From IMG/VR virus record IMGVR_UViG_2531839665_000022: DNA of 37,232 nucleotides, one strand, 5' to 3'. The stretch comes from a virus. Its lineage: Duplodnaviria > Heunggongvirae > Uroviricota > Caudoviricetes. A program made the translations under genes and the position numbers. The notes under the pieces were generated by a model, which made no database searches, had not been told where the DNA came from, and saw nothing but the letters and a program-made list of their open reading frames with translations. Positions 1-37,232 of this stretch are shown here, piece after piece (the first letter of the stretch is position 1; each line of letters begins with the position of its first letter).

Positions 1-390
1 TTACTCTTTTTTCTCCGTATCTACATCGGGTTCATCAGCAAATAGCTTGCCCTGCATCCGATCCAGTTCTTCTTTTCTTACCCGCTTAACCACGCTGTAG
101 ACCCACTGAAGCGAAACACCAAATTTGCGGGCCAGTTCATGGTGATTACGTCCGTTAAACTCCCTGAAGATTTCCCGGTCGCGCTGACTGACCTTCCATA
201 CCATGCCCATCGGGAAATAAACGTTTTGCCCGCCCCAGACCTGCATCATGCGGTTCGCGACGGCCTGACCAATCTGGTCGGCAATTGCGGGCTCAATATC
301 AATAATCTCGCGAACGGTCTCAGAGGTATGCTGTGCCAGTTCCACCAGGAGTTCCGGCCCTTTACTTCGAAACTGATTCAGGTCGCTCAT
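1..390 (-). CDS. Mor/C-family transcriptional activator (middle/late operon regulator)
   Basis: 129-aa ORF, same length as Mu Mor; C-terminal HTH-like region (GRNHHELARKFGVSLQWVYSVVKR); last gene of the minus-strand early operon, directly after the GemA-like gene as in Mu. Stop codon is at window positions 1-3. Confidence 0.7.
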   Translation of the reverse strand: MSDLNQFRSKGPELLVELAQHTSETVREIIDIEPAIADQIGQAVANRMMQVWGGQNVYFPMGMVWKVSQRDREIFREFNGRNHHELARKFGVSLQWVYSVVKRVRKEELDRMQGKLFADEPDVDTEKKE

Positions 391-853
391 GTTTTACTCC
401 CGCAGCTCTGCGCTGCCACTTCTTCAGTTTCTCAATAACACTGCTTGCCTGTTCAGTATTGAGCCAGCGCAGGGCGCTGATGCCCGTTTCCCGCTTGATC
501 CACCGCGCTAATGCATTTTCTGAACGGTCACGAACAATGCCGGCAGCAGCCATTTCAAGCCATAGCGCACGGATTTTCCTGGATTGCGGATGGTTATCCA
601 GCGGTAAACCGGAGCTGGCTTTTCCTGCAGGCCTAACGCGAAAGCCTTTCCTTTTCATGGATTCCAGCACGCAGTTTAGTTGTGTGGTATCCATTCCTTT
701 GGTTGAGGCTTTACCGGTCAGCCCCTGTAACATCTGGCGGTAGGTGTCTTCATCCATACCCAGTTCATTACGGGCAATATGAATGAGCTGGATAAGACGT
801 TGTTTAGTCATCATCGTTGCTCCTTCTGCCTGCATCACCGATATAATCGACAT
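362..853 (-). CDS. GemA-like protein (Mu gp16 family)
   Basis: N-terminal KQRLIQLIHIARNELGMDEDTYRQML matches the conserved GemA/gp16 N-terminal signature; position just upstream of the mor-like gene. Start is ambiguous among several in-frame Met codons. Confidence 0.65.
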   Translation of the reverse strand: MSIISVMQAEGATMMTKQRLIQLIHIARNELGMDEDTYRQMLQGLTGKASTKGMDTTQLNCVLESMKRKGFRVRPAGKASSGLPLDNHPQSRKIRALWLEMAAAGIVRDRSENALARWIKRETGISALRWLNTEQASSVIEKLKKWQRRAAGVKHERPESVSK

Positions 854-1019
854 ATAAAGGAAGTGCCACAGGCCAGCACAGGAACATCACCGACCAGCTA
901 ATCCAGTAACCGGCACCACTGTAACGTGAATAAAACCCTGAACGGCGGTGCAGTTCAGCAGTACACCAACCGACAAAACAATACCAGAACAGGGCACATA
1001 CAACAGATTCAGTCGTCAT
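804..1019 (-). CDS. small hydrophobic protein, unknown function
   Basis: Internal ATG at 1017-1019 of the 804..1175 ORF gives about 71 aa with two hydrophobic segments; start overlaps the stop of the upstream ORF in the style of translational coupling. Confidence 0.35.
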   Translation of the reverse strand: MTTESVVCALFWYCFVGWCTAELHRRSGFYSRYSGAGYWISWSVMFLCWPVALPLYVDYIGDAGRRSNDDD

Positions 1020-1239
1020 TCTGAATATCCCCCCAACTGATATGAATATTACGGGCAGCAATGACAGGGTCTTTATTCCACCATGCACCTGACATGTATT
1101 TTTCAACCTGTTCGCGTCCGGCAATAACACCAATTGTGATCCCCGGCCTGACGTTCTTAAAAAAGGCGCGGGCAAAAAGGTATCTGGCAGATATTCGGCA
1201 GGCTTTTAATTTCCGGCTGTTACCTGATAACGTAATCAT
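1009..1239 (-). CDS. hypothetical early protein
   Basis: 76-aa ORF packed in the minus-strand early operon; 4-bp overlap with the upstream gene. No recognisable domain. Confidence 0.35.
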   Translation of the reverse strand: MITLSGNSRKLKACRISARYLFARAFFKNVRPGITIGVIAGREQVEKYMSGAWWNKDPVIAARNIHISWGDIQNDD

Positions 1240-1919
1240 CTGGCCTCCAGTTTCTGCTGTTCCCGCCCACTGACCGGTCGGTGCAGTCTGACGTTCTGCC
1301 CTTCTCGAAACCCCGCATAGCGCGAGGCGTCGCCATTGCGACTTCTTCCCGGTTTACGCGCCCTGGTGGTTTGCGTCTGCGGGTATTTATGTTCCAGCCA
1401 CTGCTGCATCAGTTCACGTTCGTCATCGGTCAGGGCGAAGGACTGTATTTCACTGATAACGGCCAGCACCCAGCCTTCAGCAAACTGGTCTCCACGGCTG
1501 GTGCGGGTGGCGGTTTTTATTCTTTTGTTCTGTGCACTGATATACTGCTGACGCGCCTTTTTCAGCTGACGGGCCAGCACATCCCAGGTGTACGCGGCCA
1601 GTGCGGCCCGTTCCCGGTTGCCGTAGAACCCCACCCCCGGATATGTGCCGGGGTGAATGATGGAGTTAACACCAAATGCCTCGCGGATGATGTTCATCAG
1701 GCCCAGCATGTAGCGCGGCGGACGGAGGCTGCCTGTCGGCCAGTAGTGACTGATGGTTTCATCAATATCACTCATGGCGATGTCGGAATGTGTGATGCCG
1801 TGAACATCCATCAGTTTACGGGCGCGGCGCAGTGCCAGAGCAGCCTCATGCGGGTTGCCGGATGCTGCCAGCGCCAGCAACTTTTTCAGTTTCTCAATGT
1901 GCTTATCCTGGTCTGTCAT
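1236..1919 (-). CDS. DUF2786-like domain protein
   Basis: N-terminal IEKLKKLLALAASGNPHEAALALRRARKLM resembles the DUF2786 signature common in phage early regions; 227 aa. Confidence 0.55.
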   Translation of the reverse strand: MTDQDKHIEKLKKLLALAASGNPHEAALALRRARKLMDVHGITHSDIAMSDIDETISHYWPTGSLRPPRYMLGLMNIIREAFGVNSIIHPGTYPGVGFYGNRERAALAAYTWDVLARQLKKARQQYISAQNKRIKTATRTSRGDQFAEGWVLAVISEIQSFALTDDERELMQQWLEHKYPQTQTTRARKPGRSRNGDASRYAGFREGQNVRLHRPVSGREQQKLEAR

Positions 1920-2116
1920 TGTTCAGTATCTCCGGTATTTTTTTGCTGTTCCCATGCCCGAACAGCGTCGGACAGCTCTTTCAGGCTGTATGCTGCTTTA
2001 AGCTTTTCCCATAACCACTGCGTCACCACGTGGGTCAGCAGGGCAACCAGGGCGAATCCGGCGCAGATGCACACGGCTATACCAGTAAGCAGGAAAGCCC
2101 ATACCACAATTTCCAT
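1916..2116 (-). CDS. small membrane protein, unknown function
   Basis: ATG at 2114-2116 gives 66 aa (MEIVVWAFLLTGIAVCICAGFALVALLTHVV...) with one clear TM helix; the longer 145-aa reading is a basic, low-complexity extension that overlaps the next gene. Confidence 0.4.
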   Translation of the reverse strand: MEIVVWAFLLTGIAVCICAGFALVALLTHVVTQWLWEKLKAAYSLKELSDAVRAWEQQKNTGDTEQ

Positions 2117-2123
2117 AATGGTG

Positions 2124-2507
2124 TCAGTCACTGGTACCTCCTGTGGTGGTCTGGTCAGGTGCGGCGTGTGTCCTGTGGTATTTCCTGAACCAGTGGTACA
2201 GGGCAGCCAGTTTTCTGTCGATAACTTCAGTTTCCCTGTTGAAGTATTCCTGTGCCTCTTTCTCCTCTTGCGGCGGCAGTTCGCCCGGCCCACACAGGGT
2301 GTTGTAAATCCACGCCATGCCGTTCCTGGCATCACCGGTGGCCCGCCACTCAATCACTGCAGCTTTCATGACGACCAGATTGCGCCCGAAGTACAGGTCC
2401 ACCTCTTCAAATCTCTTGCGCAGGTATTCGTTTTCGTCTTCCAGTACCCGAATACGCTGTGCAGCATCTTCCGGCGTCAGTTGTGGCGTCTGTTCGGTGC
2501 GGTTCAT
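2124..2507 (-). CDS. hypothetical early protein
   Basis: 127-aa ORF with coiled-coil-like N-terminus in the early operon; no recognisable domain. Confidence 0.45.
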   Translation of the reverse strand: MNRTEQTPQLTPEDAAQRIRVLEDENEYLRKRFEEVDLYFGRNLVVMKAAVIEWRATGDARNGMAWIYNTLCGPGELPPQEEKEAQEYFNRETEVIDRKLAALYHWFRKYHRTHAAPDQTTTGGTSD

Positions 2508-2806
2508 ATGATTTCTCCGGTGTATGTGACGCCCAGCCGTGCGGCAAGGCGTTCCAGTTTTTTCTGTTTGTGGAAGTCAATCAGCCGGTCCATTCCCTGA
2601 AGGCGCAGCTGCTCTGTCATGATTTCCACGTCTGCCAGCTCTGCCGCGAGGTCACTTTCGCTGCCCTGTCCGTTCAGGTTGCGGGCGGCACTGGCCGCCA
2701 GTTCAGCGGCCTCTTCTGTCAGTTTCAGGGCCTGTGCGTCCGGCCCGAAACGCTGCAGGGCCAGACGGTAGAGGGCGGTGCGGGTGAGTTCGGTGTTCCG
2801 TGTCAT
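2504..2806 (-). CDS. MazG-like nucleotide pyrophosphohydrolase domain protein
   Basis: 100 aa with paired acidic motifs (LTEEAAELAA ... AAELADVEIMTEQL) typical of small phage MazG-like proteins. Confidence 0.5.
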   Translation of the reverse strand: MTRNTELTRTALYRLALQRFGPDAQALKLTEEAAELAASAARNLNGQGSESDLAAELADVEIMTEQLRLQGMDRLIDFHKQKKLERLAARLGVTYTGEII

Positions 2807-2815
2807 GCCGCGCCC

Positions 2816-3088
2816 TCAGTGTTTCCGGTCGACGGTGATGTTCAGGCCGCCTTCTGCAGTGGTTTCCACCCGGTACGGCACCTCGTGCTCTGCCGTGTGG
2901 GTGAGTGTGTTCATCAGTACCTGCAGGGCAGCCTCCTTTCCGTTGGTTGCCACAATGGCCTGCGTGGCCATGCTGATTAGCGCCGTCAGGACGTGCTTCA
3001 CATCGGTGAGGTCGCGGCATTCACACTCGTTGACATAGTGTTCAACAAGAGTTCGGGTGCGCTGTCGTGCTTCCTGTGGGGTAATCAT
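2816..3088 (-). CDS. hypothetical early protein
   Basis: 90-aa ORF, 4-bp overlap with the downstream gene; no recognisable domain. Confidence 0.4.
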   Translation of the reverse strand: MITPQEARQRTRTLVEHYVNECECRDLTDVKHVLTALISMATQAIVATNGKEAALQVLMNTLTHTAEHEVPYRVETTAEGGLNITVDRKH

Positions 3089-3279
3089 TGCGCGTCCTCC
3101 CTGTCAGGGCGGGAGAATTCCATGACGGGCACGTCCGCCGAAAAATGCTGGCTGCAGTACGGACAGACCAGGGTGACACGTACTGCAGGTACGTGGTACT
3201 TACCGGACATCACGGCGATGGCGCTGTGAAAACGCAGGGCTGTTATATCCCTCTCGCACTGAATACATTTAAATATCAT
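3085..3279 (-). CDS. zinc-ribbon-like small protein
   Basis: 64 aa with two Cys pairs (CIQCERD ... CPYCSQ) spaced like a zinc ribbon. Confidence 0.4.
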   Translation of the reverse strand: MIFKCIQCERDITALRFHSAIAVMSGKYHVPAVRVTLVCPYCSQHFSADVPVMEFSRPDREDAQ

Positions 3280-3376
3280 AATTTAATTCTCCTCTGTTTC
3301 CGGCGTGCAGAAGCCCACGGCGCTGACGCCGGAATAAAAAAGAAAATGTTTTTATTAAATAATTAACGTGGTGTGT

Positions 3377-3907
3377 TTACTGCACATCCTGCTCAAAAGG
3401 AATTATTGAAAAATCCTCAATATCACTTTTTATGGTAATACCGGGAATATTTTTCACGGCGTCCTTTTCATTCAGGATAGCGTCTTTATTTATTTCCTCC
3501 TTTACACGGATAAAGCGCTCAAGCCCCAGACGTCTCAGTAATTCAATAACATTATCCGCCCCACGGATACTGACTGATGGCGGACGGTTTCGCCACTGCA
3601 CCTCGCCGGTGGTGAGGTTAGCGAACTTCACCTTCCCGTTGCCGGTCAGTTCATCACGGTGTGCCTCACACCATGTCTGAATACCGGACTGCAGTTCGGC
3701 CATGCGTTTTTTCAGGCTCTCGGTGAGCGGGGCATAACGTGCGGTGATATCGCCAATGGCGTCATTCATTTCTGTTTCAGCCCTGACCAGTTCACGGTGT
3801 GCGTCACCGAGCAGTCTGATGCCCTCAATGACCTCTTCACGTGTCCCCGGCACCCAGAGTGCTGCTGCGGCCTTGATACGTTTTGCACCTTTTGTACTTT
3901 TTGCCAT
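3377..3907 (-). CDS. gam: Gam-like host-nuclease inhibitor protein
   Basis: 176 aa, collinear with Mu Gam as I recall it: MAK..KRIK.AAA, TEMNDAI..IT, WCEA.RDELT..GKVK.ANL.TG.V.WR.RPPSVSIRG, LGL.RFIR.K.EINK.AIL, GIT.KS.IEDFSIIPFEQ. Confidence 0.85.
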   Translation of the reverse strand: MAKSTKGAKRIKAAAALWVPGTREEVIEGIRLLGDAHRELVRAETEMNDAIGDITARYAPLTESLKKRMAELQSGIQTWCEAHRDELTGNGKVKFANLTTGEVQWRNRPPSVSIRGADNVIELLRRLGLERFIRVKEEINKDAILNEKDAVKNIPGITIKSDIEDFSIIPFEQDVQ

Positions 3908-4206: not shown

Positions 4207-5400
4207 TTAAACCCCTTTGACAACGTCAGCGTTGACCTGTGGAACCCCGATTTCAGCGGCCAGATTCATGGCGGCTATTACCAGGTTACTGACGGCCAGC
4301 GGATACAGCAGGCTGACCCTGTTTTTACGATGACTTCCCGGATTGCTCAGGCGGGCACGTATGGCATCCACTGCGCCGGTGTCCATAATGTCCGTCAGTT
4401 GTTTACCGGCCCGTTGCAGTTTGAACGTCAGAAATTCTTCAAGGTGATTGTCCAGAGGCAGAAGTTCGACCACCTCACAGCGCTGAACGACTTCGCGGAC
4501 TTCCATGTTGCGTTCAGACAGTTTTGTCGCCAGTTCCGGCTGGCCAATCAGCACGATGGACAGCAGCTTTTTGAAACCGGACTCCAGCTCAAAAAAGCGT
4601 TTGAGGTGTTTCAGTGTCGGAATGGGCAGACTGTGAGCCTCCTCAATCACCAGAACGTGGCTGAACCCCGCCTGGTTGCTGTCTTTCAGGACGCGATGCA
4701 ACTGGCGAAAGCGGGCGTCCTGACTGCGTCTGATGCTTTCCAGTGGTGCGATGGTACTGATAATGGCTTCGGCAATCGCTGCTGCCTTCAGAGTTTTCCC
4801 TTTCACATCGTTGTCTTCCATAGCGATGATGTATGGCTCGATAACAATCACTGGCGCATTCTCGCGGTTGATACGTTCAGTCAGGTCACGGCGCAGCGTG
4901 GATTTACCCGCACCGGACTCACCGATGACGGCCATAAACCCACCATGACGGGCTGTCTGGTACAACGCCTCACGCACGTAGCGAATGTCTGGTGTGGTGA
5001 ACACATCATCAGAACCCTGCATGGCTTCGTCGGCGAACGGGTCACGGAAAAGACCAAACGCTTTTTTGGTTGCTGGAAATAACACCTGTTTTTTGAGTAA
5101 CATATTCTCTTCCTCACTGAGGCTCGTTTTATCTGTGGTACCCGCTGTACGGGGCGTGGCCGCGCCCTGTACAGCATCAAAACTCTTCGCTGTATCAATC
5201 CCCTGACTTTCCAGCCAGGACGCAAGACGCCGGCGCACTTCTCCGGGGCTGGTGCGGGGCCACGCGTTATGATTCACAATCTGGGCCAGCGTGGCCTCAG
5301 AAACATCGACAGCTCTCGCCACCACCGCCTGTGGAATACGGGCCTCTTTCAGTTGCTGCTTCAGTACCAGCATGTTTCCCTCCTCAGTTGCCGTTAACAA
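4207..5400 (-). CDS. AAA+ ATPase, Mu B-like transposition target-capture protein
   Basis: N-terminal HTH-like segment, Walker A (VIGESGAGKST), Walker B-like (HVLVIEEAHSL); lies immediately after the transposase gene with a 17-bp overlap. Confidence 0.75.
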   Translation of the reverse strand: MLTATEEGNMLVLKQQLKEARIPQAVVARAVDVSEATLAQIVNHNAWPRTSPGEVRRRLASWLESQGIDTAKSFDAVQGAATPRTAGTTDKTSLSEEENMLLKKQVLFPATKKAFGLFRDPFADEAMQGSDDVFTTPDIRYVREALYQTARHGGFMAVIGESGAGKSTLRRDLTERINRENAPVIVIEPYIIAMEDNDVKGKTLKAAAIAEAIISTIAPLESIRRSQDARFRQLHRVLKDSNQAGFSHVLVIEEAHSLPIPTLKHLKRFFELESGFKKLLSIVLIGQPELATKLSERNMEVREVVQRCEVVELLPLDNHLEEFLTFKLQRAGKQLTDIMDTGAVDAIRARLSNPGSHRKNRVSLLYPLAVSNLVIAAMNLAAEIGVPQVNADVVKGV

Positions 5401-7153
5401 TGCTGATAACGCTGCTGCGGGCCGGCGTGGTCAGCGTGGCCATGACTTCATCCAGTGCGGCTTCCGGTACGCCGTCCGGATACTGTGCCGTTAACTGGCG
5501 GTAATGTTCCGGCGTCCAGGTAAGGCCGTCGGCGCTGAACTTATCGCGCAGGGCTTTCGCGGCCTCCACATGAGTCATGGGACGTTGTTCAGTGCGCAGC
5601 CCGCGTACGTCAGAGGCCTGACCTCGCTTCGGTATACAGGCCGGAAGTGTGGCGTCATCAATATGTTTATATGGGTCAAGCCGCCCGCCGAACGGCAGCG
5701 CCTTCGCCTTGCGTGCGGCAGCTGCATCTGCGGCGTTGTCTGTACCGGTGACCAGCGCTTCGGTTTCTTTTGCCGCCATCTGCGCCGGGGTTTCCGGCAG
5801 GGCTTTGTAACTTTCGCCAAATACCGCCGCGCTTTCAGCAAAGCCAAACTCGTTCTTTCTGACCTCTTCGACCAGGAAGAACGCCTCGTGGCCGTCCTCA
5901 CCGGTCAGAACCACCTGTGCCACATCGCTGCGCCACGGGTTACGGGTAATCATCAGTTTTTCACCGACCAGTACGCCCGGTACCGTTGATACGTCAAATT
6001 CAGTGCCCCGGAACGAGACACGAAGTTTTGGCGTGACTTTGCGGAGTTCTGGTGTCGCCACAGCCAGTTCACGGCATACCTCAACGGAAGGCGCTTTTTT
6101 CAGCTGCTCAGCAGTAATCTTCAGCCAGATATCCGTGCGGGTTTTACCGTGGCGGCTGTGAACAGCCGTGGCGTTAAAGTGGCTGCGCCATTTCGCGGCC
6201 AGCGCGTTGAGTTCTTCCAGACTGTGAACCGGCCGGAACTTCAGACCCGGCTCCAGCTTGCGTTCGATAATGTCACGCGCCTTTTCCACCTGTCCGGTGG
6301 CGCGGGCGTTATGCGGCTTGTGTGCTATCAGGTCGATGCCCAGTGAGCGGCACATGTTTTTCGTCATACCCGCGGTGTTTGCCGAGCCGGGGTCGAGATA
6401 GAGTATTTTCGGCACGCCGTGCAGCACGTCTGCGCCGCCACGCTCCTGCATGGCGTTGATAAGCACAGAACACAGGTTCTCACCGGATTCCGCACCCGTC
6501 ACATACTCAACGTAAATCCAGCCGCTGGCATGGTCGGTAATCTCGTAACTCCACACGCGGTCACTGGCGATACAGGCAAGGTTAGCGGGCTTGTTCTTGT
6601 AGAACTTCGCGCTGTCCATCACCTGCAGTCCTTTGTGTCCATTACTCAGGTAGTAAAGCGTGCAGAGCGAGGCATCAATCTGCCAGACATGATTGGGATG
6701 CAGACTGGCCACTTCGGTATGCGGCGCAGGGGCATCCAGTTGTTCCGGGTGCAGGCCATAGTTACGCAGGGCTCGGCTGATGGCATCTTCGGACAACGGG
6801 AAAAACTCACCGGTGGTTTCATCTGTTCTGCCTGCGGAGATAAAGCCATTAGCCCGCAGGGTTTCCACTGCATCCGCGATGGAATAGAGACGCTTACCGT
6901 TCTTGCGGGTGGCCTCACGCAGTGTGGCAGATATCAGCGCGGCTTCGTCGCGGGTCAGGGCGCTGCGCCCGGCATCGGCGCGTTTTTTGCGTTTATCAGT
7001 CACAGAGACCTCCTTCAGCCTGCGCAGCAGAGTGGCGCGGGACATGCCAAGTTCAGCACAGGCAGCGTCGTATATTGCACCGCGTTTACCATGCCCCGCG
7101 TCACGTGCCGCGCGGGCGACATAAACCAGTCGTTCAGTCAGGGCAGCATTCAT
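5384..7153 (-). CDS. DDE transposase, Mu A-like (integrase-core fold)
   Basis: 589 aa; N-terminal HTH (MSRATLLRRLKEV), candidate catalytic residues in the HVWQIDAS and ILYLDPGSANTAG segments, followed by the B-like ATPase. Confidence 0.8.
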   Translation of the reverse strand: MNAALTERLVYVARAARDAGHGKRGAIYDAACAELGMSRATLLRRLKEVSVTDKRKKRADAGRSALTRDEAALISATLREATRKNGKRLYSIADAVETLRANGFISAGRTDETTGEFFPLSEDAISRALRNYGLHPEQLDAPAPHTEVASLHPNHVWQIDASLCTLYYLSNGHKGLQVMDSAKFYKNKPANLACIASDRVWSYEITDHASGWIYVEYVTGAESGENLCSVLINAMQERGGADVLHGVPKILYLDPGSANTAGMTKNMCRSLGIDLIAHKPHNARATGQVEKARDIIERKLEPGLKFRPVHSLEELNALAAKWRSHFNATAVHSRHGKTRTDIWLKITAEQLKKAPSVEVCRELAVATPELRKVTPKLRVSFRGTEFDVSTVPGVLVGEKLMITRNPWRSDVAQVVLTGEDGHEAFFLVEEVRKNEFGFAESAAVFGESYKALPETPAQMAAKETEALVTGTDNAADAAAARKAKALPFGGRLDPYKHIDDATLPACIPKRGQASDVRGLRTEQRPMTHVEAAKALRDKFSADGLTWTPEHYRQLTAQYPDGVPEAALDEVMATLTTPARSSVISIVNGN

Positions 7154-7156
7154 TGG

Positions 7157-8068
7157 TTATGCCTCCAGCCCGTTAATCTGTGGCGTCGGCTCAGTCAGCC
7201 ATGAAGGCGCTGCATTGCCTGTTGGCTCGTCCGGCAGGTCAAATGTGGAGCGCAGGCTACGCGCTGTGCTTTCCAGTTGACAGACCAGGCCTGCCATGAA
7301 GTCTCTGGGGGTATCAATCATGTTTTCAGCACAATATGCGCACAGTGTCTCAAAAGCGCTGGACAGTCGAACGGCGATAGCAGATTCCGCCTCAACCGCT
7401 AATGCTGTCACTTCCGCCCGCAGCTTCTTAACCTCCTCATCAGGCTCAGGCGGCTGAATACGGGATTTCTTTTCCAGTCTGGTAGAGAGAGAATCAATTT
7501 TTTCATTTTTATCGGCGAGTACGCGCTGTTGTGCTGCGTTGGTTTCGCGCGCTTCGCGCAGGGCCTGGCGAAGTTCGCGTACTGACATGCGATCAACGTC
7601 GTCAAGCGTCAGGCCGGCAACTGTGCCGCCGTCGGCCAGTTCGGCAAGCTCTTCGTCGTCTTCTGTCATTAATTCGAAAAGTTTGGCTTTTCCCAAATGT
7701 GCCAACGTTGGCACATTTGGTTTCAGCGCCGGGGATAAGTATTTTGTCGATGCTTGCATCATTCTCACAGATGTCCGGTATGCCAGCCCCAACTCACTTT
7801 CAAGAATCTTTATAAACTCCCCGTGTGGTTCATTTTCCTTAAGGATTATCAGCCGCTTACCTGCCTCCAGCATGGCCTCAGCGCTCTGTGCCATATAAAA
7901 GCGTGCCTCATGGACAACACGATCGCGCTCATAGGGCAGACCATCGCCGAACTGTTGCATGATTTCCATGCGATGCTGTGTCATGGCGTTTAGACTGACA
8001 TTGAGATCATCCGACAGCGGTACCTCGACGTTCAGTTCAGTGCTAACCGGTGATTTGGTGCGTCCCAT
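7157..8068 (-). CDS. hypothetical early protein with coiled-coil region
   Basis: 303-aa ORF between the regulators and the transposase; acidic and coiled-coil-like middle; no domain I can name. Confidence 0.45.
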   Translation of the reverse strand: MGRTKSPVSTELNVEVPLSDDLNVSLNAMTQHRMEIMQQFGDGLPYERDRVVHEARFYMAQSAEAMLEAGKRLIILKENEPHGEFIKILESELGLAYRTSVRMMQASTKYLSPALKPNVPTLAHLGKAKLFELMTEDDEELAELADGGTVAGLTLDDVDRMSVRELRQALREARETNAAQQRVLADKNEKIDSLSTRLEKKSRIQPPEPDEEVKKLRAEVTALAVEAESAIAVRLSSAFETLCAYCAENMIDTPRDFMAGLVCQLESTARSLRSTFDLPDEPTGNAAPSWLTEPTPQINGLEA

Positions 8069-8078
8069 TGATTACTCC

Positions 8079-8387
8079 TTACAAACGACTACCTGAAATA
8101 ACACGTTGGTTGATTTCGTTAATGCGATCCTGTGCACGTGCCATCTCGTTACTGTGGGCCATGGCGATCTGCAGCAACTGGATGCCTGGTGCGAAACGCC
8201 CGTTTTCTAGTTTCAGAGCCAACCCTTCTTCAATGAGCGTGTTAAGTGCCCGGTTGATGTTTGCCGGTGATTCGTGCAGTGCAACCGCTAGTTCCCCGTT
8301 AGAAACACCGTTCAAAGCGTGGCCACGTAAGGCCTTAAGAACGCGCAAAATACGGGTACCTGAGCTTGATGTATTTGGTTTATTCAT
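8079..8387 (-). CDS. winged-helix DNA-binding protein (IclR/MarR-like HTH)
   Basis: 102 aa; RILRVLKALRGHALNGVSNGELAVALHESPANINRALNTLIEEGLAL looks like a winged-helix HTH. Confidence 0.5.
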   Translation of the reverse strand: MNKPNTSSSGTRILRVLKALRGHALNGVSNGELAVALHESPANINRALNTLIEEGLALKLENGRFAPGIQLLQIAMAHSNEMARAQDRINEINQRVISGSRL

Positions 8388-8614: not shown

Positions 8615-8696
8615 CGTGTTCCTGTTAGGTTATGATGTACTCTATTGGGTCTATTGTACACACCCAAATGAGTGTGTCAAATTGAGATATGTTCAA
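8615..8696. promoter_or_regulatory. divergent early/repressor promoter-operator region
   Basis: 82-bp AT-rich spacer between divergent Ner-like and repressor genes; contains a CTATTG direct repeat, a TGTAC/GTACA inverted repeat and the dyad TACACAC-N9-GTGTGTC (8657-8679). Confidence 0.5.
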
Positions 8697-25671: not shown

Positions 25672-25677
25672 CATCAC

Positions 25678-25700: not shown

Positions 25701-25762
25701 AATCCCCTTTAATATCCGTCACGTCCACCGCCAGACATACTGCTCTGAATTTACAAAGGAGT

Positions 25763-26186: not shown

Positions 26187-26279
26187 CAACGTATCACTTA
26201 ACAGCCGCCAGTCGCGGCTGTTCTGCATGGGTTTCAGACACTTCCCTTCCGTTTTTTTTGCTTTCAGAGGATAGCCACC

Positions 26280-29629: not shown

Positions 29630-29841
29630 TGTTTCTTGAACATATTACCCGTGACGGAGAGCGCTGGGATTCGCTGGCATGGCAGTACTACGGTGACCCG
29701 CTGGGCTATCCCCGGATTATTGCAGCCAATCCGCACGTGGCCATTACGCCGGTGCTGCCCTCCGGGGTGTTGTTACTGATCCCGGTTATTGAGGCTGAAG
29801 ATGCCCGCACAGAAGAGGATGTTGCTCCATGGCTGAGATAA
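29626..29841 (+). CDS. tail protein X-like
   Basis: 71 aa, size and position of P2 gpX-like proteins; 4-bp overlap with the upstream gene. Confidence 0.55.
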   Translation: MMFLEHITRDGERWDSLAWQYYGDPLGYPRIIAANPHVAITPVLPSGVLLLIPVIEAEDARTEEDVAPWLR

Positions 29842-30983
29842 ACAGTACTGCGCAAGACGTATCAGCGTTAACCGGCGTCAGCGATGTGCTGACGCCGGTG
29901 TTCACTCTGTGGTATCTGCAGAAAAATATCACCTCTGATATCGCGCCTTATGTCACCCGTGTGACCTGGAGCGATAACATCAAAAATGAGTCCGATACCA
30001 TTGAGGTGGAGCTGGATGACACCGATGGTCGCTGGCTGGATAAGTGGTATCCGGGCAAGGGTGACACGCTGACGCTGAAAATGGGTTATCAGGGCGAGAA
30101 ACTGCTGTCCTGCGGTACATTCTCAATAGACGAGATCGAAGTGAGTTCGCCCGCGTCCGTTGTCGCTATCCGTGGGGTGGCCACCTCGGTTAACAGTGCT
30201 CTGCGGACTAAATCCAGCCGTGGTTTTGAGAACACCACGCTGGCAGCTGTTGCGGGGCGGATTGCCAGAAAGCACCGACTGAAACTGGTGGGCAGCATTG
30301 AGTCCATCAAAATCGACCGGGTGACCCAGTATGCTGAAACCGACGTGGGTTTTCTGCGCCGGCTGGCCAGCGAGTATGGTTATGCAGTGAAAGTGGTCAG
30401 TGACCAGTTGATTTTTTCTCATCTGGCCACACTGCGCAGTCAGGAGCCGGTCAGGCAGTTAAAACCGCAGGATGTGGCCTGCTTTTCCCTGCGTGACACC
30501 ATCAACCGGGTCTATAAATCTGCAAAGGTAAAACACCAGAAAAGCAGCAGTAAAAAACTGATCGTCTACGAAGCTGATGGTGGTACCCGTGAAAGCGACA
30601 AAAAGCTCAAAGGCGGTAAGGTTACCAGCGCTGACTCACTTAAAGTTAACAGCCGCGTCAGCGACCCGGACAGTGCCCGGATTAAAGCGGATTCAGCACT
30701 GGCCAGACATAACGAATACCAGCAGAACGGCTCCCTGACGCTGACGGGAACGCCTCAACTGACAGCAGGCAACAAAATTGAACTGGTGGGCTTTGGACAG
30801 TTATCCGGTCCATGGCTGATAATCACTGCCCGCCATGCGTTTGAGCGTAACAGCGGCTACACCACAGAGCTGGAAGTGGCACGGGGGCCAGTCACAAGAG
30901 GGAAAAAACAAAAAACTCAGAAACTCACGGTTTATCACCCGGATGGCAGTACATCGACGGTGATTAAGGAGAAGAAAAAATGA
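29829..30983 (+). CDS. tail/baseplate hub protein (P2 gpD-like / Mu P-like)
   Basis: 384 aa, size, position and general sequence character of the late control D / Mu P family. Confidence 0.7.
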   Translation: MAEINSTAQDVSALTGVSDVLTPVFTLWYLQKNITSDIAPYVTRVTWSDNIKNESDTIEVELDDTDGRWLDKWYPGKGDTLTLKMGYQGEKLLSCGTFSIDEIEVSSPASVVAIRGVATSVNSALRTKSSRGFENTTLAAVAGRIARKHRLKLVGSIESIKIDRVTQYAETDVGFLRRLASEYGYAVKVVSDQLIFSHLATLRSQEPVRQLKPQDVACFSLRDTINRVYKSAKVKHQKSSSKKLIVYEADGGTRESDKKLKGGKVTSADSLKVNSRVSDPDSARIKADSALARHNEYQQNGSLTLTGTPQLTAGNKIELVGFGQLSGPWLIITARHAFERNSGYTTELEVARGPVTRGKKQKTQKLTVYHPDGSTSTVIKEKKK

Positions 30984-31507
30984 CTGGTGTCACCCGTCAG
31001 ATCGGTACGGTCAGTGCCGTTGATGCCGACAGGGTTCAGGCCCGCGTTCGTCTGCCTGAATGCGATAATCTGCGCACAAACTGGCTTAACGTGCTACAGC
31101 GCAATACCCAGGATAACAAGGATTACTGGCTCCCTGACGTGGGGGAGCAGGTTGAGGTGCTGCTCGATGCCAACGGCGAGGATGGTGTTATTCTGGGCGC
31201 GGTGTACTCAGACGTCGATAAACCGCCGTTCAGTGATAAAAACGTCCGGGGTACGAAATACGCTGATGGCGCGGAGTTCAGTTATAACCGCGCGACCCAT
31301 ACGCTGACGGTCAGAGGAGGTATTGAGCGTATCGTGGTGGAGGTTGCCGCTGATATCTCTCTCAAAGGGAAAAACCTCGACCTCACGGGAGTTACCACGA
31401 TCAACGGCCCCGCGACACTCAATGGTGATCTGGAAATCAACGGAAGCGCCCATGCAACGGGTAACATATTTGCTGATGGTCAGAACTCTAATCACCATTC
31501 CCATTGA
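30980..31507 (+). CDS. baseplate spike protein (gpV-like)
   Basis: 175 aa; N-terminal OB-fold-like region and C-terminal repetitive region (LDLTGVTTINGPATLNGDLEINGSAHATGNI); His-rich C-terminal tail. Confidence 0.7.
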   Translation: MTGVTRQIGTVSAVDADRVQARVRLPECDNLRTNWLNVLQRNTQDNKDYWLPDVGEQVEVLLDANGEDGVILGAVYSDVDKPPFSDKNVRGTKYADGAEFSYNRATHTLTVRGGIERIVVEVAADISLKGKNLDLTGVTTINGPATLNGDLEINGSAHATGNIFADGQNSNHHSH

Positions 31508-31563
31508 ACCTTCTTAAACGCCTTTAATATCGGCGCTTACTTCCCGGGGGCAATACTGCCTCC

Positions 31564-31911
31564 ATGAAAACGACCTCAGTATTCTGGCAACCAGCTCTGC
31601 AGGCTCCCGGCGAAATCGTCCGGGGGCTGGATGATATCCGGCAGTCCATCCAGATCATCCTGCGGACTCCCCGCGGCAGCGACCCGCATCGCCCGGAGTT
31701 CGGCAGCAATCTGCACCTTTATATCGACTGGCCTGTCGGCCGGGCCATTCCGCATGTGGTTCGCGAATCCGTCGATGCCATCAGGCGCTGGGAACCCCGC
31801 TGCCAGCTTATGTCGGTTAAACCCGCCGTCGACGGCGAACATCTTACGCTCCGGGTGAGCTGGAAAGGCTCAGACGGACAACCCCGTACTCAGGAACTGC
31901 TATGGCGCTGA
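31564..31911 (+). CDS. baseplate wedge protein (GPW/gp25 family)
   Basis: 115 aa with the family signature RTPRGSDPHRPEFGSNL. Confidence 0.75.
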   Translation: MKTTSVFWQPALQAPGEIVRGLDDIRQSIQIILRTPRGSDPHRPEFGSNLHLYIDWPVGRAIPHVVRESVDAIRRWEPRCQLMSVKPAVDGEHLTLRVSWKGSDGQPRTQELLWR

Positions 31912-33005
31912 CAGAACCCGATTTTATTGAACGCGATGCCGATAAAATCACGGCAGAAATGATTGCGAAGTATGAAGCGGATACCGGAAAAACGCTGTAC
32001 CCGGCACAGGCTGAACGTCTGCTGATTGACCTGTGGGCCTATCGCGAAATGCTGGTCAGGGTGGCAGTACAGGAGGCGGCGAAGCAGAATCTGGTCGCTT
32101 TTTCCCGTGAGCCGATGATTGATTACCTCGGTGAACTGGTCGGTGTATACCGCCTTGCCGCGCAGCCTGCCACCACCACACTTCAGTTCTCTGTGGATGA
32201 GGCACTGGCCATTGATGTGCTGATCCCGGCAGGCACCCGCGTCAGCGCTTCCGACAGTATTATTTTTGCCACCGATACAGACGTGGTGCTGAAGGCCGGA
32301 TTGCTGCTGGTCAATGTCACGGCCACCTGTACCGAGCCGGGTACCGCTGGCAACGGCTGGCAACCGGCGCAGGTCAGTCAGTTACTCGATGAGATTGATA
32401 ACATTGACCTGCTGGTGACCAATCTGACGGCCAGCTCTGGCGGTTCAGAGCAGGAAGACGATGACCGGCTCCGGGAGCGTATCAGGCTGGCCCCGGAGTC
32501 ATTCACCAATGCCGGAAGCCGTGGTGCATACCGTTTTCATGCTATGGGGGCGCATCCCGGCATTGTCGACGTTGCTGTTCTTTCTCCCGCTCCCGGCACT
32601 GTCGAGCTGTATCCGCTGCTCAGCACTGGTCTGCCGGACAGCAGTATCCTCACTCTGGTAGAGAGTTTCTGTTCTGACGAAAAAGTCAGACCACTCACTG
32701 ATACCGTGCGGGCTAAAACACCTGTTCAGGTGGATTACACCATTGAAGCCAGGATTACGATCTATCGTGATCAGGATGCAAGGTTGGTAAAGGACAACGC
32801 TAACAGCGCCATACAGAACTGGGTGGCATCCCGTACCGCCACGCTGGGGCGCGATATTGTTCCCAGCCAGATTATCAGCGTGTTGTCCGTTTCCGGGGTG
32901 TACCAGGTCGAACTGGTGACACCGGCACTGAGGGTGGTGGCAGAAAACGAATGGGCAAACTGTACGGCGATCACTCTTAACATGACCGGGGTGTCCGATG
33001 GCTGA
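31902..33005 (+). CDS. baseplate J-like protein
   Basis: 367 aa, follows the gp25-like gene; size and order as in P2 J / Mu gp47. Confidence 0.75.
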   Translation: MALTEPDFIERDADKITAEMIAKYEADTGKTLYPAQAERLLIDLWAYREMLVRVAVQEAAKQNLVAFSREPMIDYLGELVGVYRLAAQPATTTLQFSVDEALAIDVLIPAGTRVSASDSIIFATDTDVVLKAGLLLVNVTATCTEPGTAGNGWQPAQVSQLLDEIDNIDLLVTNLTASSGGSEQEDDDRLRERIRLAPESFTNAGSRGAYRFHAMGAHPGIVDVAVLSPAPGTVELYPLLSTGLPDSSILTLVESFCSDEKVRPLTDTVRAKTPVQVDYTIEARITIYRDQDARLVKDNANSAIQNWVASRTATLGRDIVPSQIISVLSVSGVYQVELVTPALRVVAENEWANCTAITLNMTGVSDG

Positions 33006-33576
33006 GGTGCTACAACTCCCGCCACCGCTTGAGGGTGATATCAGTCTCAGAACGCTGGGAAGACTGGCCGGACGGCTGGATAACATCGACCTGAGCGTAC
33101 TGATGGTCGGTCTCGTCGATATTGTCGACAGTTCCGCGCTGCCATGGCTTGGCGAGCAGTTCTCGCTGTTCGGCGATGGCTGGGAACTGGCGGAATCGGA
33201 CGATGTACGCCGCATGCTTATCAAATCCGCTATCGAGCTACACCGCTATAAAGGAACACCGTGGTCAATCCGGGAAATTATCCGCCGTTTTGGCTTCGGC
33301 GAAGTGGATCTGATTGAAGGTACGGGGCAGATTGGCTATGACGGCAGACACACGTACAACGGGCTTTTCGTCCATGGTGATGCACAAGCCTGGGCAGTCT
33401 ATCGCGTCATCTTTCAACAACCCATCACTAACGATCAGGCGGCGCTGTTACGTCAGACGCTTGCTGCCTTTGCTCCGGCTCGCTGTCATCTGGCAAGTCT
33501 GGAATATCAGTCTGTCGCCATTCGATACAACAGTACTACCTGTTATGACGGTAGTTACAACCACGGGAGCAGTTAA
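32998..33576 (+). CDS. baseplate/tail protein (P2 gpI-like)
   Basis: 192 aa directly upstream of the tail fibre gene, overlapping the J-like gene by 8 bp. Confidence 0.65.
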   Translation: MAEVLQLPPPLEGDISLRTLGRLAGRLDNIDLSVLMVGLVDIVDSSALPWLGEQFSLFGDGWELAESDDVRRMLIKSAIELHRYKGTPWSIREIIRRFGFGEVDLIEGTGQIGYDGRHTYNGLFVHGDAQAWAVYRVIFQQPITNDQAALLRQTLAAFAPARCHLASLEYQSVAIRYNSTTCYDGSYNHGSS

Positions 33577-34722: not shown

Positions 34723-35016
34723 TCCTTGCTTAATGCACAATCACATTCGGTTATAGATCATATTCACTATATGGAGTTATGGACTGGTGAAGGGCTTGCC
34801 GCAAATAGCACCCGTGCAGGAACAAACCCTGGTATACTGGCTACATACGGTGATGGCGGGATTGTTAAAACAGATGAGTCAGGTGTAAAAGTTCCATCTT
34901 CACTACGTGCTATTGGCACTCGTGGTGTTTATAGATTAGGTGCCAACGGAGGGAATACAGGAACGGAAAACCGCCCCCGTAATATTGCGTTTAACTATAT
35001 TGTAAGGGCTACTTAA
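34513..35016 (+). CDS. alternative tail-fibre tip cassette 2 (collar domain), not fused in this orientation
   Basis: 167 aa starting with the same about 70-aa segment as the fibre tip and ending RPRNIAFNYIVRAT, with a distinct middle; directly downstream of a hix-like site; no own RBS. Confidence 0.65.
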   Translation: MGEGSALPVGVPVPWPSATPPAGWLKCNGAAFSSEMYPKLAKAYPANKLPDLRGEFIRGWDDGRGIDSGRSLLNAQSHSVIDHIHYMELWTGEGLAANSTRAGTNPGILATYGDGGIVKTDESGVKVPSSLRAIGTRGVYRLGANGGNTGTENRPRNIAFNYIVRAT

Positions 35017-35633
35017 TGAATAATGCTGCTGCAGTACTTGATCAGAATGGTATCGCTATAACTGCAGGCGATATTACCGTTTATAACTACGATGCTGAAA
35101 ACCGTGAATATCTCTCTGCCACTGTTGAGTATCTCGCTTATGGTGTTGGAATTCCGGCTCACTCATGCATTGACGCGCCACCAGAAAAACGCCCCGGCTT
35201 CGCTGTCTGTCGTGATACCGACCAGAACATCTGGAAATATGTTCCAGACCACAGAGGCGAAACGGTTTACAGCACAGAGAATGGTAACGCTGTGCAAATC
35301 ACACAACCGGGAGATTACCCTCCTGATACGACGGTGAAACAGCCAGCTACTATCTATGATGTCTGGGATGGTGAGACCTGGGTGACAGATGCGGGACGAC
35401 AGCACGCAGCAGAACTGGAAGCTGCCGGAGCGCATCGTCAGCAACTTGAGGAACAGGCAATGGCATCTGTTGAGCTTATAAATCTCAAACTACGAGCCGG
35501 ACGCCGATTGACGCCCCAGGAGACGGAAAAACTAAACGCCGTGCTTGATTTCATAGATGTGCTTAATGCGACTGACATCAGCACTGCACCGGATATCAAC
35601 TGGCCGGAAATGCCTCTGGCAGCAGCCAGTTGA
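35016..35633 (+). CDS. tail fibre assembly protein (Mu U / P2 G-like)
   Basis: 205 aa; N-terminus MNNAAAVLDQNGIAITAGDITVYNYDAENREY typical of tail-fibre assembly chaperones. Confidence 0.7.
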   Translation: MNNAAAVLDQNGIAITAGDITVYNYDAENREYLSATVEYLAYGVGIPAHSCIDAPPEKRPGFAVCRDTDQNIWKYVPDHRGETVYSTENGNAVQITQPGDYPPDTTVKQPATIYDVWDGETWVTDAGRQHAAELEAAGAHRQQLEEQAMASVELINLKLRAGRRLTPQETEKLNAVLDFIDVLNATDISTAPDINWPEMPLAAAS

Positions 35634-35639
35634 ATATAA

Positions 35640-36116
35640 CTAAGCCGCCCTCACGATATAGTTAAATGCAATATTGCGGGGGCGGGTTTCACTACCACCT
35701 GTGTTACCAATACTTCCTCGTGAATGAAGCGTTGGTGATGGAGTCAAACTCCCTCCTGTATTTGTGGCATCAAGCCCCCTGCCTTGTGTATATGTTTTTT
35801 TGAAAATCGTAGCCAACTCCCATTCATCTTTTGTGTCATATCCATCGTTAGCTACAACAATATGGCGGTGTTTTTCCAACATCCCGTTTTGAATGCTCAA
35901 TAAAGCGCGTGCCGCATCAATTCCTCGCCCATCATCCCAGCCACGGATAAATTCTCCGCGTAAATCCGGTAATTTATTCGCGGGGTAGGCTTTTGCCAGT
36001 TTGGGGTACATTTCAGAAGAAAATGCTGCACCGTTACATTTCAGCCAGCCCGTTGGTGGTGTTGCTAAGGGCCACGGAACGGGCACACCAACGGGCAGTG
36101 CAGAGCCTTCCCCCAA
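35640..36116 (-). CDS. alternative tail-fibre tip cassette 3 (collar domain), inverted orientation
   Basis: 158 aa on the minus strand with the same shared N-terminal segment and C-terminal RPRNIAFNYIVRAA, distinct middle. Confidence 0.65.
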   Translation of the reverse strand: MGEGSALPVGVPVPWPLATPPTGWLKCNGAAFSSEMYPKLAKAYPANKLPDLRGEFIRGWDDGRGIDAARALLSIQNGMLEKHRHIVVANDGYDTKDEWELATIFKKTYTQGRGLDATNTGGSLTPSPTLHSRGSIGNTGGSETRPRNIAFNYIVRAA

Positions 36117-36133
36117 ACCAACGTTTCTATGCC
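35907..36133 (-). repeat. cassette-3 recombination site plus shared homology block (inverted copy)
   Basis: Reverse complement of 36108-36133 is GGCATAGAAACGTTGGTTTGGGGGAA; inverted relative to sites 1 and 2. Confidence 0.55.
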
Positions 36134-36588
36134 GCTCTTACGATGTAATTAAATGCAATATTACGCGGACGAGCTGATACATAAGCCCACCAGTCATATT
36201 TTTGTGCACCTTTACTGGATGCATCAAATATCCACTTTTTGCCATTTATGGCCCCCCATTGATTAGAGCTTAAAGTGTCACCAAATCCGTATTGTGTTGA
36301 GCTGAGTGAACTGATATCCCCAGTATCATTATCATCAAAACCGGAGACGATAGTGCCTTCCTGAAATGAAAGTATCTCTCGTCCTGCATCAATACCTCGT
36401 CCGTCATCCCAGCCACGAATAAACTCACCCCGTAAATCCGGTAATTTATTCGCGGGGTAGGCTTTTGCCAGTTTGGGGTACATTTCAGAAGAAAATGCTG
36501 CGCCGTTACATTTCAGCCACCCTGCTGGCGGTGTGGCTGAGGGCCACGGAACGGGCACACCAACGGGCAGCGCTGAGCCTTCCCCCAA
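36127..36588 (-). CDS. alternative tail-fibre tip cassette 4 (collar domain), inverted orientation
   Basis: 153 aa on the minus strand with the same shared N-terminal segment and C-terminal RPRNIAFNYIVRAA, distinct middle. Confidence 0.65.
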   Translation of the reverse strand: MGEGSALPVGVPVPWPSATPPAGWLKCNGAAFSSEMYPKLAKAYPANKLPDLRGEFIRGWDDGRGIDAGREILSFQEGTIVSGFDDNDTGDISSLSSTQYGFGDTLSSNQWGAINGKKWIFDASSKGAQKYDWWAYVSARPRNIAFNYIVRAA

Positions 36589-36605
36589 ACCAACGTTTTC
36601 GTCTT
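36379..36605 (-). repeat. cassette-4 recombination site plus shared homology block (inverted copy)
   Basis: Reverse complement of 36580-36605 is AAGACGAAAACGTTGGTTTGGGGGAA; inverted relative to sites 1 and 2; 55 bp upstream of the invertase gene. Confidence 0.55.
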
Positions 36606-36659
36606 AACTCCCACCTATACCAGCTATGTATTTTTAACAAAACAAAGAGGATATTTTTC

Positions 36660-37232
36660 ATGCAAATTGGCTACATTCGTGTGTCAACAAATGACCAGAA
36701 TACAGATTTACAACGAAACGCACTGAACTGCGCAGGATGTGAACTGATTTTTGAGGATAAAATCAGCGGAACAAAGTCAGCCCGACCGGGATTGAAAAAG
36801 CTGCTCAGAACGTTATCAGAAGGAGATACGCTCGTTGTCTGGAAGCTGGACAGGCTGGGCAGAAGCATGAAACACCTCATCACTCTTATTGAGGAACTGC
36901 GGGAAAAAGGGGTTAACTTCCGTAGTCTTACAGACAGCATTGATACGTCAACACCCATGGGACGTTTCTTTTTTCACGTCATGGGGGCTTTAGCGGAAAT
37001 GGAGCGTGAATTAATAGTTGAACGAACACTGGCCGGACTTGAAGCAGCACGTGCACAGGGGCGTATTGGTGGACGTCGTCCGAAACTGACAAAAGAGCAA
37101 CATGAACAAATAGCAAGGCTGATCAAAAATGGCTATAGCAGGAAACAGTTGGCAATTATTTACGATATCGGTATATCGACGATTTATCGTTATCACCCTG
37201 TAGAGGAACTTCAAACTCAAGCTGAGTTGTAA
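36660..37232 (+). CDS. serine-recombinase DNA invertase (Gin/Hin/Cin/Pin family)
   Basis: 190 aa from ATG 36660; N-terminal catalytic motif MQIGYIRVSTNDQNTDLQ with the conserved serine, resolvase-type core (VVWKLDRLGRS), C-terminal HTH (GYSRKQLAIIYDIGISTIYRY); adjacent to the cassette array. Confidence 0.9.
   Translation: MQIGYIRVSTNDQNTDLQRNALNCAGCELIFEDKISGTKSARPGLKKLLRTLSEGDTLVVWKLDRLGRSMKHLITLIEELREKGVNFRSLTDSIDTSTPMGRFFFHVMGALAEMERELIVERTLAGLEAARAQGRIGGRRPKLTKEQHEQIARLIKNGYSRKQLAIIYDIGISTIYRYHPVEELQTQAEL

Follow-up and report, generated by a model that had tools for sequence, protein, structure and literature searches.

The stretch of DNA analysed here (IMG/VR record IMGVR_UViG_2531839665_000022, 37,232 nt; in the following "the window", meaning this stretch at its full length) is very probably a near-complete prophage of Escherichia coli that belongs to the transposable myoviruses of the BcepMu type. 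Judged from sister copies, just 162 bp at the end carrying the Mor-like activator gene and 78 bp at the end carrying the invertase gene appear to be missing from it. Elements of this kind are already known; public genomes contain near-identical copies, and a close relative is listed among the phages.

Gene content compared with BcepMu and Mu

The gene map was drawn from a six-frame list of open reading frames, and identities were assigned by means of Pfam, PHROGs, NCBIfam and BLAST (Table 1). Seventeen genes occupy the minus strand between 1 and 8608, and the repressor gene starts at 8697 on the plus strand. Lysis, head and tail genes are situated on the plus strand (12398-35633), followed by an inverted pair of tail-fibre cassettes and by a recombinase gene that ends at 37232. 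A stop codon interrupts none of the 55 reading frames.

When the 55 translated genes were searched against the genomes of BcepMu and Mu, 34 had homologues in BcepMu, collinear and on identical strands, and only 10 had matches in Mu. On the early side, identities to BcepMu amount to 54% (Mor), 45% (GemA), 59% (ATPase), 68% (transposase), 41% (gp10) and 35% (gp12), and on the late side to 50% (holin), 61% (SLT), 67% (TerS), 62% (TerL), 59% (portal), 77% (sheath) and 62% (gpI). The genes matching Mu are Mor, GemA, Gam (62%), TerL (49%), portal, F (47%), G, a baseplate protein, a 25-residue stretch of S and Gin (75%); tblastn searches with Mu A, B, Ner, c, Kil, Com and Mom yielded zero matches in the window. 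A BcepMu-like layout, as opposed to the co-directional order of Mu, had been proposed in a previous reading of the letters and their open reading frames (the sequence-only reading). This is borne out because the genes are collinear with those of BcepMu, the record of phage B3 exhibits the same layout, and the published organization of BcepMu is identical, with genes 1-13 on the bottom strand, genes 17-52 on the top strand and lysogeny control at genes 16/17 (PMC2771037).

Most details of the sequence-only reading hold as well. Matches in Pfam, PHROGs and NCBIfam bear out that the minus strand encodes Mor, GemA, Gam, an AAA+ ATPase, the transposase and helix-turn-helix (HTH) proteins and the plus strand the functions of lysis, head and tail, and the window does start at the stop codon of the Mor gene and end at that of the invertase gene. 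Concerning the divergence of both clusters from the region of 8.6-12.4 kb, the strand indeed switches there, but the true point of divergence is an 88-bp gap and not the whole stretch, which contains the repressor, a plus-strand cargo pair of low GC content and a Dam methylase gene, the latter on the minus strand; a second divergent gap is situated at 12151-12397. The late genes lie in general on the plus strand, as had been stated, but two tail-fibre cassettes (35640-36116 and 36127-36588) are found on the minus strand, which would be expected of an invertible segment.

Among the characters of the BcepMu group, the window possesses the divergent clusters, a gp09-type transposase of the rve family, an ExeA/GspA-like ATPase, and a Mu-type head combined with a P2-type tail. 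The characters of Muvirus, i.e., MuA and MuB domains, co-directional genes with separate Mor and C, and a 5-bp target duplication, are lacking. The transposase shares 56% identity with its counterpart in Pseudomonas phage B3, 69 phage records contain this transposase family, and its residues D160, D254 and E290, which constitute the DD(35)E triad, are invariant compared to BcepMu and B3. In a control, Mu A matched the four Mu-specific Pfam families used for MuA (DDE_2, HTH_Tnp_Mu_1/2 and Mu-transpos_C), whereas the transposase of the window, BcepMu gp09 and B3 ORF12 matched rve only; Phage-MuB_C, which served as the family for MuB, is likewise absent from the window. The transposase of BcepMu has been assigned to the Tn552/IS1604 family (PMC2771037, PMC2628397). 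The ATPase has an intact Walker A motif (GESGAGKS, residues 151-158), is 59% identical to BcepMu gp08 and has no match to Mu B. The small regulator in the position of Ner exhibits a faint match to HTH_35, the Ner family, at E 0.007, compared to 1.5e-27 for Mu Ner itself. Sequence searches of solved structures with the transposase and the ATPase returned nothing useful. The terms A-like, B-like and Ner-like used in the sequence-only reading are therefore apt for analogues in function and position but not for homologues of the Mu proteins, as no match to Mu A, B or Ner exists and the Mu-specific Pfam families are absent.

It is very improbable that the element is truly related to Mu (Muvirus) and has undergone an inversion of its early region in this one case. 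The matches of Mor, GemA, Gam, TerL, F and Gin to Mu, together with an invertible segment like the G segment of Mu, agree with such an origin, but they stand against the unmatched Mu genes listed above, the failure of the Mu-specific families to hit the transposase, the limitation of Mu matches to 10 of 55 genes at about 3% nucleotide similarity, and a target duplication of 6 bp and not 5 bp. Moreover, the layout is common to BcepMu and B3, such that it is ancestral to the group and a local inversion is excluded.

Table 1. Features of the window with position, strand and supporting evidence
Feature	Position	Strand	Evidence or remark
Mor/C-family activator, last gene of the leftward early operon	1-390	-	PF08765 E 1e-43; 54% to BcepMu gp01
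GemA-like protein	362-811	-	PF06252 E 1e-40; 45% to BcepMu gp02, 36% to Mu GemA
Eight small early genes, function unknown	804-3279	-	Pfam, PHROGs; no BLAST match to BcepMu or Mu
DUF2786/DUF7168 protein	1236-1919	-	Pfam/PHROGs
MazG-like NTP pyrophosphohydrolase fragment family	2504-2806	-	Pfam/PHROGs
Gam, host-nuclease inhibitor	3377-3907	-	PF07352 E 1e-40; 62% to Mu Gam; no BcepMu counterpart
Transposition ATPase, B analogue, ExeA/GspA-like AAA+	4207-5373	-	AAA_22 E 3e-20; phrog_296 "DNA transposition protein" E 3e-92
DDE transposase, BcepMu/B3 type	5384-7153	-	Pfam rve only; 68% to BcepMu gp09 over 581 residues
DUF3102 protein	7157-8068	-	PF11300; 41% to BcepMu gp10; position of B3 ORF13
Small HTH regulator, gp12-like	8079-8387	-	HTH_IclR E 2e-5; 35% to BcepMu gp12
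Small HTH regulator in Ner position, BcepMu gp16 family (sub-threshold)	8384-8608	-	TIGR04111 29.1 bits, cut-off 34
Divergent control region	8609-8696		88-bp gap
Candidate leftward early promoter TTGACA-16-TACAAT	8680..8653	-	11/12 consensus positions; putative function
Cro/CI-type repressor, HTH_3, without S24 peptidase domain	8697-9104	+	PF01381 E 2e-12; weak DicA/RstR subfamily matches
NA37/YejK-like nucleoid-associated protein	9175-10182	+	NA37 E 1e-80; phrog_5023
401-residue protein with C-terminal membrane helices	10185-11390	+	Transmembrane helices predicted near residues 287-309 and 356-377
D12-class DNA adenine methyltransferase (Dam)	11380-12150	-	PF02086 E 7e-28
Candidate late-promoter element 1, TTAAAATCC	12340-12348	+	Upstream of lysis and packaging genes
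Lysis cassette: holin, SLT endolysin, Rz	12398-14113	+	Holin_2-3 E 6e-41, SLT E 1e-14, phrog_1403 Rz-like spanin
Lysis cassette with two small conserved genes	12398-14747	+	50-61% to BcepMu gp21-26
Packaging and head completion: TerS (gp27 family), TerL, portal, F-like, G-like	14747-19640	+	44-67% to BcepMu gp27-31, 27-49% to Mu; Phage_Mu_Gp27 E 1e-56, Portal_Mu E 6e-90, Phage_Mu_F E 2e-25
Hairpin and U-run after G	19684-19730	+	-20.5 kcal/mol, z -2.9
Candidate late-promoter element 2	19792-19800	+	Before head genes
Head protease/scaffold (Mu I analogue), major capsid, head-tail connectors	19855-23449	+	45-53% to BcepMu gp32-38; Phage_cap_E weak
P2-type contractile tail: sheath, tube, chaperone, tape measure, U, X, D, V, W, J, I	23439-33576	+	28-77% to BcepMu gp39-51; Phage_TAC_7 match; gene names follow RefSeq
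Candidate late-promoter element 3	25709-25717	+	Before tail genes
Candidate late-promoter element 4	31524-31532	+	Before baseplate and fibre genes
Tail-fibre gene and putative invertible multi-cassette segment	33579-36598		Inverted repeats of 220-265 nt at 82-96%
Tail-fibre assembly gene, single copy	35016-35633	+	Caudo_TAP
Gin-family serine DNA invertase, 190 residues	36660-37232	+	Resolvase E 2e-51 and HTH_7; 75% to Mu Gin

Ends, insertion sites and integrity of the element

The ends of the element were read from seven E. coli genomes that contain prophages 97-99.7% identical to the window. These represent seven insertion loci of a unit of 36.8-38.2 kb: inside yccM, emrA, cbrA, a reverse-transcriptase gene and a lambdoid tail gene, and between chbG and katE as well as between yhfW and php. 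The tips are identical in all seven copies (start TGATTAGACTTG, end CGCGGCGCATCA) and follow the pattern 5'-TG...CA-3', and on either side of each copy stand the same 6 bp as an exact target duplication (ACGACC, ATGCGT, CGTTCT, ACGTGA, GCTCGC, TGAAGG and GTCACC). Each end contains two tandem sites of about 23 bp with a core of G(A/C)GATA(A/T)(A/T)T at nucleotides 12-20 and 35-43 from the tip. The ends of BcepMu exhibit the same site architecture, left resembling left and right resembling right, and imperfect end repeats of 23 bp are described for BcepMu and phiE255 (PMC2920897), as are TG...CA ends for BcepMu (PMC2771037). The sister copies thus integrate by transposition at many chromosomal sites, and with TG...CA termini, repeats of about 23 bp, many sites and a short duplication they show the end characters of the BcepMu group. 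Regarding two of these genomes, E1441 and FAM21845, one copy lies inside the tail gene of a lambdoid prophage and the other inside the reverse-transcriptase gene.

For the window itself, the left tip TGATTAGACTTGAGATAAATG is predicted to lie about 162 bp to the left of position 1 and the right tip ...GCGCGGCGCATCA about 78 bp past the window end, such that the terminal repeats are absent from it, in agreement with the sequence-only reading; a search for internal transposase-binding sites gave only chance-level matches to the end motif with one mismatch. The same reading had predicted TG...CA termini with repeated binding sites, which were found (sites of about 23 bp), and a 5-bp duplication, which was not, the duplication being 6 bp in seven out of seven copies.

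Two further explanations, both with a negligible probability, have to be weighed against these ends. Two unrelated prophage remnants might abut near 9-12 kb, the left one contributing the early and transposition genes and the right one P2-like late genes; a drop in GC content to 0.41-0.45 at 9-12 kb, the switch in strand polarity at the same place and the P2-like character of the tail genes would fit this. However, one unit of 36.8-38.2 kb, bounded by one matching pair of TG...CA ends and one 6-bp duplication, has moved as a whole to each of the seven loci, BcepMu is collinear across the supposed junction, and the GC dip corresponds to a cargo insert present in only 19 genomes, whereas the backbone occurs in about 640. 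The element might otherwise be a P2-like or other temperate prophage with site-specific integration, for which the serine recombinase gene at the right end (36660-37232) would provide the integrase and with which the P2-type tail module agrees. Yet this recombinase is a Gin-type invertase of 190 residues, 75% identical to Mu Gin and accompanied by four gix-like sites at the tail-fibre cassettes; the insertion sites differ in all seven genomes, with unrelated genes being split; a tyrosine integrase is lacking; and neither an att site nor an integrase of the site-specific type is found beside the element. The sequence-only reading had named these two findings, an integrase with att sites or two abutting remnants, as those that would overturn it, and both are excluded.

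The first 25 kb of the window match E. coli chromosomes with up to 99.7% identity (MS20655), and 575 out of 5426 complete E. coli genomes cover at least 80% of this part. Of these 5426 genomes, 640 carry the two transposition genes, at 709 places in total and in up to three copies per genome. About every ninth complete E. coli genome thus carries a related prophage, JJ1886 (sequence type 131, ST131) and ABU 83972 being among them; a search of the ST131 literature for a description of this prophage lineage retrieved nothing specific.

Several points weigh against the reading of the window as a BcepMu-type prophage, to which two reservations about the candidate late promoters (see below) are to be added. 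The nucleotide similarity, calculated one-way, amounts to only about 23% to BcepMu, compared to about 73% to PhiKM, about 7% to B3 and about 3% to Mu, which makes the element a family-level relative of BcepMu and no congener by the 70% rule. A threshold of about 70% nucleotide similarity to the type species is the ICTV's practice for genera, and the value for BcepMu lies below it, such that strict membership in Bcepmuvirus does not follow. Judged from sequence similarity, the element is placed inside the BcepMu group but outside the immediate genus of the type species. Its ends and target duplication are taken from prophages 97-99.7% identical to it, with its own flanks lying outside the window. 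No operators, pac site or gyrase site were identified, and the inducibility of this particular copy is hypothetical.

The last point touches the alternative that the window is of the BcepMu type but a defective, immobile copy, i.e., a fossil retained for its cargo or as a source of tailocins. We regard this as unlikely, albeit by far less remote than the explanations discussed so far. Some sister copies bear frameshifts, IS66 insertions or truncated right ends, and the tape measure is shorter in the window (821 residues) than in sister copies (983 or 896 residues). On the other hand, all 55 frames are open, the catalytic residues and the Walker A motif are intact, copies of 97-99.7% identity at many sites and with up to three per genome indicate a lineage that was recently mobile, and close relatives (PhiKM, Klebsiella phage KP12) were deposited as phage isolates.

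Control region, late genes, tail fibres and cargo

The repressor gene holds the position of BcepMu gp17 and B3 ORF18. Just 17 bp separate its start codon from the candidate early promoter (8653-8680), and a dyad ACACAC...GTGTGT lies between and over the hexamers of this promoter as a possible operator. Concerning the activator, the gene at 1-390 is the only one that matches Mu Mor (E 9e-13), and the same is true of Mu C (E 5e-12); it is the sole Mor/C homologue in the window. The sequence-only reading had considered that a late activator C might lie outside; this does not hold, because the tips of the element are situated just 162 bp beyond the Mor end and 78 bp beyond the invertase, leaving no room for a separate C gene.

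In the remaining early region, the DUF3102 gene between the small regulator and the transposase gene is common to the window, BcepMu (6485-7438) and B3 (7341-8267); the protein has no Mu counterpart, and its role is not known. The block of small early genes differs between sister prophages, and TUM13754 contains one MazG-like NTP pyrophosphohydrolase gene (2999-3304) in place of three genes of the window (1916-2806).

Four copies of the nonamer TTAAWATCS, and no more, are found in the window (0.77 expected), always on the plus strand and always in a gap before a late block, although the significance of this count is inflated since the motif was derived after inspecting the four gaps. Its counterparts in BcepMu are TTAATATCC before the gpW gene and GATTAAAAGACC before the holin and protease genes, the lysis and head sites of BcepMu deviating from TTAAWATCS at two positions. 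The four copies are candidates for late promoters that depend on Mor/C; the motif looks like a -10 box lacking a -35 box, which is what promoters relying on an activator would be expected to show. Two of the copies, at 19792 and 25709, are preceded by hairpins of the terminator type. The one between G and the protease gene contains TTTATAAAGGCTTTAC, which is shared by the window and BcepMu (18729-18760) within DNA that is otherwise not alignable, and it is probably a terminator. The position of this hairpin in the G-I gap is the location of the strong gyrase site of Mu. A Mu-like strong gyrase site was considered for this gap; a terminator would be the simpler explanation given a hairpin and U-run in both phages. 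As to the tail genes, the difference in length between the tape-measure gene of the window (26280-28745) and those of its sister prophages suggests tail-length variants or an internal deletion.

The tail-fibre segment contains four alternative C-terminal cassettes, each beginning at a gix-like core AAAC(C/G)TTGGTTT (at 34061, 34503, 36115 and 36587). Two cores are found in each orientation, homology among the cassettes starts at the core, and every one of the four cassettes encodes a Collar domain. The invertase possesses the catalytic-serine motif YIRVSTNDQ. The characters of a Gin-family inversion system, a small serine invertase and inverted AAACC-NN-GGTTT cores flanking alternative fibre ends, are thus present together, and the segment is predicted to be invertible.

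Beside the repressor gene, two cargo genes lie 2 bp apart within the region of low GC content (0.41-0.45 over 9-12 kb). The first encodes a nucleoid-associated protein (NAP) and the second a protein with an acidic N-terminal part, for which the isoelectric point is 5.1, and two or three predicted C-terminal membrane helices. The pair is found in only 19 of about 640 genomes carrying this prophage family; a commoner variant of the slot contains three small open reading frames, and in JJ1886 an IS66 element is also situated in it. The same NAP/membrane pair is further conserved in Paraburkholderia (beside an Mrr-like nuclease), in Shewanella and in a lambdoid prophage of Citrobacter (between Q and holin). 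The Dam gene, which exists in the sister E. coli prophages and in PhiKM but not in BcepMu, converges on the gene of the membrane protein with an overlap of 11 bp.

With adjacent genes for a YejK-like NAP and for an effector with an acidic N-terminal domain and a C-terminal transmembrane region, the pair has, as far as its predicted domains tell, the architecture of type II PANGU. In that system a NAP sensor and a membrane effector abort infection upon degradation of the host genome by a phage, and the set described includes a system of a uropathogenic E. coli (preprint of 2026, 10.64898/2026.04.06.716658); a YejK-domain system is also among the validated matches of DefensePredictor. PADLOC 2023 contains no type II PANGU model. 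Its KwaA-like match, which would speak for a Kiwa system, is weak (E 8e-5) and confined to the membrane part, and this assignment was rejected. An AlphaFold2 model of the 401-residue protein (pLDDT 81) had no PDB match below E 0.4.

A tentative proposal, to which we assign a probability a little short of an even chance, is that the cargo is a working type II PANGU-like abortive-infection pair (NAP sensor plus membrane effector) expressed in the lysogen and that, separately, one Mor/C activator may drive all four late units directly, i.e., in a two-tier cascade as opposed to the three tiers of Mu. If this is true, a transposing phage, with the host chromosome intact, would carry a defence that senses the destruction of the host genome by other phages without triggering that defence itself.

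The following course of events may be envisaged for the element. In the lysogen, the Cro/CI-type repressor would silence the strong leftward promoter in the 88-bp divergent gap. Derepression would start leftward early transcription of the HTH regulators, the DUF3102 protein, transposase, ATPase, Gam, accessory genes, GemA and, as the last gene, the Mor/C activator. Transposase and ATPase would bring about genome replication through successive rounds of transposition into the host chromosome, with Gam meanwhile shielding DNA ends, and the Mor/C protein would then activate about four late units read rightwards (for lysis and packaging, for the head, for the tail, and for baseplate and fibres). 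The Mu-type terminase would package by headful from integrated copies, as documented for BcepMu (PMC2771037, PMC2920897), and virion DNA is expected to carry host flanks because of this mode of packaging. The Gin-type invertase would shuffle the four tail-fibre tips, and the cargo pair next to the repressor probably guards the lysogen against other phages.

As the layout is a published hallmark of transposable phages of the BcepMu/B3 type, it has little weight as a discovery. The value lies in annotation: such prophages are routinely labelled only by an "integrase catalytic domain" and an "ExeA family" protein, and it is now possible to call their ends, their 6-bp duplications and the genes that they disrupt (yccM, emrA, cbrA and others) with precision. 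The slot adjacent to the repressor is one place in such prophages where defence cargo may be sought. Of most use among the by-products are the exact ends together with the 6-bp duplication, the element proposed as a late promoter, and the cargo resembling PANGU.

Comparison with known systems

The organization of the element is shared with BcepMu and phiE255 in the divergent clusters with lysogeny control between them, in Mor, GemA, ATPase, transposase, gp10/DUF3102 and gp12, in the holin-SLT-Rz cassette, the Mu-type packaging and head genes and the P2-type tail, and in TG...CA tips with two repeats of about 23 bp per end. The window additionally possesses Gam, Dam, the Gin invertase with the putative invertible fibre segment, and the NAP/membrane cargo, whereas the HU-like, SSB-like and DUF3164 genes and the right-end acyltransferase of BcepMu are lacking. 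The immunity region (repressor and gp16) is not alignable between the two by BLAST.

The nearest phage records are PhiKM (PQ738613), Klebsiella phage KP12 and Phi06_2974 B, which exhibit 95.7%, 86% and 85.5% nucleotide identity, respectively, over 78-84% of the first 25 kb and constitute the same enterobacterial lineage. PhiKM is filed in GenBank under Bcepmuvirus; its record is partial and differs in having another immunity/cargo region without the NAP/membrane pair, and the invertase gene is absent from it. Phage B3 (Beetrevirus) exhibits the same leftward order (HTH, regulator, DUF3102, transposase, ATPase ... GemA, Mor) and the same rightward order of repressor, lysis and head genes, but is a siphovirus with an unrelated tail module.

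Despite homologues of Mor/C, GemA, Gam, TerL, portal, F and G, the Gin invertase with its fibre segment, about four activator-dependent late units and a lifestyle of replicative transposition (presumed for the window), there are fundamental differences to Mu (Muvirus): A, B, Ner and c are unrelated, early and late genes are co-directional in Mu with Mor and C being separate, and Mu has a 5-bp duplication, three binding sites per end, Mom/Com and tail genes of its own. Transposons of the Tn552/IS1604 type resemble the element, according to the literature, in the rve core, the adjacent AAA+ ATPase gene and short repeated end sites, but are transposons and not a phage of 37 kb. Target duplications of Tn552 measure 6-7 bp.

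Concerning the tail fibres, the inversion systems Gin, Cin, Pin and Min (Mu G, P1 C, e14 and p15B) share with the window a Gin-family invertase and an AAACC-NN-GGTTT core that opens each alternative C-terminus. The G segment of Mu has two states, whereas the window contains four sites, four cassettes and one assembly gene; since Min of p15B is a multi-site arrangement, the four-site layout of the window is closer to it than to Mu G. Type II PANGU (Pag2A as NAP, Pag2B as membrane effector), finally, has the same bicistronic composition of a NAP and a protein with an acidic N-terminus and a transmembrane C-terminus, the likeness being one of architecture, and is likewise mobile across taxa and found in moron slots of prophages.

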